DNA from: Escherichia coli
GTDB taxonomy: Bacteria; Pseudomonadota; Gammaproteobacteria; Enterobacterales; Enterobacteriaceae
Strand: one strand, 5' to 3'
Assembly (NCBI RefSeq): GCF_003334815.1
Contig: NZ_QOWO01000071.1
Length of the DNA: 5,879 bases
Part shown: positions 1 to 128 of the stretch, one piece after another
Position numbering within the stretch: position 1 is the first letter of the stretch
Layout of the letters: each line of letters begins with the position of its first letter
The notes under the pieces: generated by a model
Seen by the model: only the letters and a program-made list of their open reading frames with translations
What the model was told of the DNA's origin: nothing
The model's database searches: none
Translations under genes and position numbers: made by a program

Positions 1-128
1 ATGGCTCATGATGTCCCTCTGGGATGCGCTCCGGATGAATATGATGATCTCATATCAGGAACTTGTTCGCACCTTCCTGAGCGGTAGTAAAGTCCTAAAA
101 CTTTAACCTGCCGTTAATGTCAACCTTG

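Follow-up and report, generated by a model that had tools for sequence, protein, structure and literature searches.

Genes and features of the window

The window, i.e. the whole stretch of Escherichia coli DNA analysed here (5,879 bp), carries the genes lgoT, tsr and btsT. The gene lgoT (180-1541, plus strand), recognized by its open reading frame and annotation, is intact, begins with GTG, and encodes the L-galactonate:H+ symporter of 453 aa. It is followed by tsr on the minus strand (1590-3254) and btsT on the plus strand (3616-5781), both assigned from the list of open reading frames and from annotation. Alignment with K-12 identifies positions 78-179 (plus strand) as the native upstream region of lgoT, with the ribosome-binding site AGGAG at 169-173 and a C-to-T change at 167. 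The native sequence ends at 77..78, where genome matches and the break point of the K-12 alignment place a junction between an insertion sequence (IS) and the chromosome. The remaining segment, 1-77, is almost certainly the left (IRL) end of a complete, 1195 bp long ISKpn26-like element of the IS5 family that occupies the place of lgoR, and the short frames that are open at this edge are not tails of genes.

Sequences to the left of position 1 were read from locus L001, which derives from a genome 100% identical to window positions 1-1200. Compared to the window, L001 shows a single A/G difference at position 3400, in the tsr-btsT intergenic region, and is otherwise identical over 5802 bp.

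The window is bounded by IS ends on both sides, each 77 bp long. The one at the right edge (5803-5879) belongs to an IS150-like element of the IS3 family and is 100% identical to copies of such elements found on numerous chromosomes and plasmids. The break lies directly after GCCCCGCTTCGG, inside the hairpin GCCCCGC-TTCG-GCGGGGC which follows btsT in L001. This right-hand IS150-like junction was found in no complete E. coli genome of the collection, which therefore does not include the genome from which the window comes.

Structure and identity of the element at the left edge

In the window, the left-edge element is represented by three consecutive parts, all on the minus strand. The terminal inverted repeat IRL (62-77), which forms the outer end of the IS, is 16 bp long and reads GGAAGGTGCGAACAAG on the minus strand; it was recognized by pairing of the repeats and by identity to IS5A. 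Next to it is the 5' untranslated leader of the transposase gene (10-61), read from the sequence and including a ribosome-binding motif, GAGGGA, at about 20..14. Positions 1-9 hold the first three transposase codons, ATG AGC CAT, specifying M-S-H (9..7, 6..4 and 3..1, respectively), and the gene then runs off the left window edge. The start was assigned to 9..7 because the nearest in-frame stop upstream of this ATG is located at 57..55, with no other start codon between them.

The complete transposase gene can be followed on the minus strand of L001 (4029-5009). The encoded protein has 326 aa and begins with MSHQLTFADSEF. It matches the NCBIfam profile NF033581 (IS5 family transposase) with 366.8 bits, compared to the cut-off of 140, across profile positions 1-285 of 285, and it is annotated in RefSeq as ‘IS5-like element ISKpn26 family transposase’.

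The whole element extends over 1195 bp in L001 (3883-5077), of which 1118 bp lie outside the window. Its terminal repeats, at 3883-3898 and 5062-5077 (the latter equal to window 62-77), match in 15 of 16 positions. The partner of IRL at the far end, 1163 nt away, is GGAAGGTGCGAATAAG, and the 16-bp form GGAAGGTGCGAA(C/T)AAG is present at both ends. Terminal repeats are the sequences bound and cut by transposases of this kind. The IRL is identical to that of the K-12 element IS5A, and the entire segment 1-77 recurs with 100% identity in many copies on E. coli chromosomes and plasmids that carry the ISKpn26 annotation. The name ISKpn26 is suggested by the RefSeq annotation and by this complete identity of 1-77 to copies annotated in the same way. 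RefSeq already annotates the element, which is an ordinary member of a known IS family. In IS5, a weak transposase promoter partly overlaps IRL (PMC11677980, a study of IS5 itself and not of the present element).

Short open frames at the left window edge

Two plus-strand frames are open at the left edge. Frame 1, counted from position 1, remains open for 28 codons, translated as MAHDVPLGCAPDEYDDLISGTCSHLPER, and its first stops are TAG at 85-87 and TAA at 88-90. Frame 2, counted from position 2, is open for 34 codons and ends with TAA at 104-106, and frame 3 has six stops within 1-106. The TAG at 85-87 and the TAA at 104-106 had been correctly located in the original prediction, which also considered that runs of this length could be due to chance. 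Calculations based on the frequency of stop trinucleotides in the window (0.030) bear this out, giving a chance of p = 0.42 for an open run of 28 codons and p = 0.35 for one of 34 codons. In addition, at 46% of window positions two of the three plus-strand frames contain no stop over at least 34 and at least 28 codons. Both runs are thus no longer than expected by chance.

It had also been proposed to extend the sequence upstream, where stops in both frames immediately before position 1 would speak against the tail of a gene. The extension in L001 gave such a result for frame 2 and not for frame 1. Frame 2 is closed at once by a TGA ending exactly at window position 1, and in L001 it is a 32-codon ORF from ATG to TAA. 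Frame 1 continues through 89 further open codons upstream, within the IS and antisense to the transposase gene. Its codon boundaries coincide with those of the transposase codons on the opposite strand, i.e. it is an in-phase antisense frame. TTA, CTA and TCA are the sole sense codons that give rise to stops in such a frame, and for this reason long open antisense runs are expected without any coding function. We conclude that frame 2 is a chance ORF, frame 1 is a ‘shadow’ running antisense to the 5' part of the transposase gene, and neither plus-strand frame is a gene tail. If read, frame 1 would leave the element through the IS end and halt at the first stop in chromosomal DNA.

We have also considered that frame 1 could be a real gene of the IS. 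According to this explanation, a 93-codon ORF antisense to the transposase gene (L001 4806-5087) would be coding, and window 1-87 would represent its C-terminus. Antisense coding has a precedent in IS5, whose antisense ins5CB operon stimulates transposition (PMC11677980), and frame 1 is open through the IS end in the ISKpn26-like element as well as in K-12 IS5A, despite only 58 of 77 identical positions. Against it, openness of an in-phase antisense frame says little about coding, for the reason given above, and with a stop frequency of 0.030, a stretch of 26 codons reaching through the terminus would be open in about 45% of cases. The two elements also differ in the start codon, which is ATG in the ISKpn26-like element (93 aa) and TTG in IS5A (61 aa). 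Comparison of the 25 frame-1 codons in window 1-75 with IS5A revealed eight non-synonymous and three synonymous changes, and because of this ratio there is no sign of coding constraint on frame 1. Finally, larger groups of antisense ORFs are located deeper in the elements, at L003 1151-1431 and 1438-1806 and at L001 4078-4358 and 4437-4733; these would correspond to ins5C and ins5B. Frame 1 shares the frame of the ins5B-like ORF (L001 4437-4733), is positioned downstream of its stop, and leads out of the element. The same antisense frame of K-12 IS5A (L003 1903-2163) stops 11-13 bp into the adjoining DNA. Any translation of the antisense frame would therefore end in flanking DNA, which is different at every insertion site. 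Altogether, we regard a frame-1 gene as very improbable compared to the shadow frame of the transposase.

IS junctions and the loss of lgoR

Junctions were searched for with window 1-179 as a query in 5426 complete E. coli genomes. The two parts of the query behave differently. About 4700 genomes, including K-12 and O157:H7, match only 78-179, in an unannotated spacer, while IS copies on chromosomes and plasmids, numbering in the hundreds, are 100% identical to 1-77 or 1-78 and match no further. The whole query is covered in one piece in 73 of the 5426 genomes. Alignment with K-12 sets the IS break at the same point, 77|78, and shows that 78-179 correspond to the 102 bp next to lgoT in the K-12 spacer of 214 bp between lgoR and lgoT, differing from it in 1 of 102 positions.

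The gene order in K-12 is lgoD (minus strand), lgoR (plus strand), the 214-bp spacer, and lgoT (plus strand). In L001 the order is lgoD, IS, lgoT. Several complete E. coli genomes share window 1-1200 with 100% identity, and in each of them an ISKpn26-family transposase is annotated at the position of the left window edge. For example, NZ_CP024127.1 carries lgoD, the ISKpn26-family transposase and lgoT, and no lgoR.

These data allow evaluation of the suggestion that the C-terminal end of lgoR reaches into the window as frame 1 or frame 2. In favour of it, lgoR immediately precedes lgoT in the same orientation in K-12, and frames 1 and 2 are both open where the window begins. It does not agree with the distances, since the K-12 lgoR ends 214 bp before lgoT and the window has just 179 bp upstream of this gene. 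Furthermore, segment 1-77 has no similarity to lgoR and instead resembles IS5-family ends on chromosomes and plasmids, lgoR is missing from the locus in genomes with this junction, and frame 2 is closed by the stop that ends at position 1. Alignment to the lgoR 3' end, which had been proposed as a check, was equally unfavourable, since in all genomes the alignments of 1-77 were with IS ends. The probability that an lgoR tail is present can be considered negligible.

The original prediction also considered that the lgoR-lgoT gap in K-12 may exceed 179 bp, in which case the segment would be purely intergenic. The gap is indeed larger, as measured above, and the native spacer accounts for 78-179 with one difference from K-12; both are in favour of all of 1-179 being featureless native intergenic DNA. 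The same does not apply to 1-77, which is mobile-element DNA with the start of a minus-strand gene, a reading that the original prediction did not take into account. This segment is not part of the K-12 spacer, it is identical to ISKpn26-family ends located elsewhere, plasmids included, and it carries the start codon of a transposase. No leftward extension of 78-179 matches into native DNA was observed among the genomes matched with window 1-179. An entirely native spacer is thus hardly credible, and with regard to annotation, the left window edge should be described as mobile-element DNA including the beginning of a gene on the minus strand, without any tail of a plus-strand gene, and with lgoR missing.

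The exact extent of the replaced segment was determined by reading both junctions and aligning them with K-12. On the left side, native ...GGACTCACAAG joins GGAAGGTGCG... 9 bp before the ATG of lgoR. On the right side, ...CACCTTCC joins native TGAGCGGTAG... at a distance of 102 bp from the lgoT start. The IS takes the place of 1036 bp of the K-12 locus (1965-3000), in which lie the ribosome-binding site of lgoR, all 915 bp of the gene, and 112 bp at the lgoR-proximal end of the spacer.

This IS copy is flanked by the 4-bp sequences CAAG (left) and TGAG (right), and a 4-bp target-site duplication is not present. Target-site duplication is a mark of a simple insertion event and not a property of the element. 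Because the flanks differ and 1036 bp are missing, the arrangement indicates a deletion rather than a simple insertion, and the duplication is missing because the IS copy borders this deletion. Neither of the two flanks fits YTAR, the target preference of IS5. Judged from the junction sequences, the arrangement probably arose through an IS-associated deletion, which would have occurred either as an adjacent deletion by one copy or by recombination between two copies.

Distribution among E. coli genomes

Counted separately, the left junction of the element was detected in 74 and the right junction in 73 of the 5426 complete E. coli genomes. Carriers were isolated from humans, pigs, dogs, pigeons, frogs, cattle, and water, and several of them are enterotoxigenic strains, for example O169:H41 F6326-C1, O27:H7 B4103-1, and ATCC 43886. 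In many carriers, the record contained no other match to the junction query.

The C-to-T change at window position 167 (K-12 ...AAATACAGGAG; window ...AAATATAGGAG) is located upstream of AGGAG, 13 nt before the GTG of lgoT. The T allele was found in 71 of the 5426 genomes, always in the lgoT upstream region, and the ten 167-T genomes among the matches listed overlap largely with carriers of the junction. The change may be no more than a marker of the lineage. Matching junction counts, together with the T allele in 71 genomes, point to one ancestral event in one lineage that would make up ~ 1.3% of complete genomes. The two IS junctions offer a simple PCR marker for this lineage.

The lgo locus is variably present across E. 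coli. A true lgoR (at least 95% identity) was found in about 4409 genomes and the lgoT region in about 4491 of the 5426. Repeated natural loss of lgoR was considered on the basis of these numbers and is not strongly indicated, since the excess of about 82 genomes is mostly accounted for by the present lineage (73-74). In ~ 800 genomes, the best match to lgoR is merely a ~ 81% identical gene annotated as ‘GntR family transcriptional regulator’, presumably a paralogue or a divergent allele.

Expected effect on lgoT and L-galactonate use

In E. coli, lgoRT and lgoD form divergent operons induced by glucuronate, and lgoT is reported to be co-transcribed from the lgoR promoter as a part of the lgoRT operon (PMC5934670). 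LgoT is the L-galactonate:H+ symporter (bioRxiv 10.64898/2026.05.20.726482), and LgoR is called the ‘pathway regulator’ in the same preprint. According to another report, E. coli needs yjjM (lgoR) in order to grow on L-galactonate (PMC3588905, citing Reed 2006).

In the carrier lineage, lgoT and lgoD are intact and the regulator gene lgoR is missing. The lgoD-lgoR control region is kept on the far side of the IS, so that 1.2 kb of IS DNA is interposed between this region and lgoT, and the transposase gene is oriented away from lgoT. Consequently to this organization, lgoT would be cut off from LgoR and, by the 1.2-kb IS, from the lgoR promoter. Since lgoR is reported to be essential for growth on L-galactonate, the lineage is probably unable to induce the pathway normally. 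The simplest reading of the arrangement would be a loss or weakening of regulated L-galactonate use. We have thus a recognisable lineage which lost the L-galactonate regulator by an IS-associated deletion while lgoT and lgoD were kept, and for which an altered L-galactonate phenotype can be predicted.

Transcription signals around the junction were surveyed by consensus scans. No sigma-70-like promoter was found on the plus strand of window 1-400; the same scan returned a sigma-70-like site on the minus strand (186..158), which does not exceed what is found in shuffled sequence. The scan across the whole IS in L001 likewise disclosed no plus-strand promoter. A hybrid or outward promoter at the IS-chromosome junction was considered as well, and it is unsupported by the consensus scans. 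Terminators within the IS that could stop transcription on its way to lgoT were looked for as well; two weak terminator-like hairpins exist on the plus strand (L001 3915-3927 and 4086-4101), neither above the shuffle expectation, and no structured RNA in the window matched Rfam at gathering thresholds. The old lgoR promoter could read through the IS into lgoT.

A different explanation is that the loss of lgoR was an adaptive rewiring and not neutral decay. It assumes that the lgoR promoter, or IS promoters acting in the ins5CB direction, transcribe across IRL into lgoT independently of LgoR, and the C-to-T change at 167 might then be compensatory. Three observations would fit such a scenario: yjjM was hit during evolution in the mouse gut (PMC12332998), a line evolved in the laboratory acquired an IS186 insertion (PMC3588905), and lgoR was independently truncated by IS1 in strain YZ22PE106 (see below). 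If true, the L-galactonate transporter would be expressed without LgoR in ~ 1.3% of complete E. coli genomes. We consider rewiring unlikely, and prefer impaired regulation of L-galactonate use as the outcome of the deletion.

Two small palindromes were observed upstream of lgoT, CGTAAT-GCACA-ATTACG (129-145) and, overlapping with it, the perfect 8-mer TTACGTAA (141-148). As judged from its sequence, the segment 129-148 could serve as a binding site, with LgoR, ExuR, and UxuR among the candidate regulators.

Comparison with known systems

The element closely resembles IS5 of K-12, for example IS5A (insH1). Both elements are 1195 bp long, collinear, and 94.6% identical in their full length. The ISKpn26-like element shares with K-12 IS5 the same 16-bp terminal repeats, a near-identical transposase of 326 aa, and antisense ORFs in matching places. 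The terminus included in the window is more divergent, with just 58 of 77 positions identical to IS5A, and all 19 differences are located in 1-60, mostly in the leader.

The bent region of IS5 is responsible for activation of neighbouring operons, such as glpFK, bgl, and fucAO. This region, 177 bp long, and an IHF site are located at the 3' (IRR) end of IS5 (PMC11677980). In contrast to these cases, the end facing lgoT is IRL, opposite to the IRR end with the bent region, and the activation mechanism of IS5 therefore has no obvious purchase on lgoT.

ISKpn26 is best known for disruption of mgrB in Klebsiella pneumoniae (PMC11537006 is an example). As in mgrB cases, the element at the lgo locus removes the function of a small regulatory gene. 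The two situations differ in that the present copy resides at the lgo locus of the E. coli chromosome and is accompanied by a 1036-bp deletion instead of a simple insertion. In addition, the lgo copy is apparently inherited within a lineage and not a product of recent antibiotic selection.

A comparable arrangement was found in one genome, that of strain YZ22PE106 (NZ_CP171864.1; L004 2094-3056), which also has an IS directly upstream of lgoT, in this case IS1A. There, lgoR is cut to its first 138 bp, and native DNA resumes 56 bp before lgoT, corresponding to window 124-179. Both the element and the break points are different from those in the lineage described here, and YZ22PE106 retains a fragment of lgoR. 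The IS1-mediated truncation of lgoR in this strain is an independent event at the same locus.
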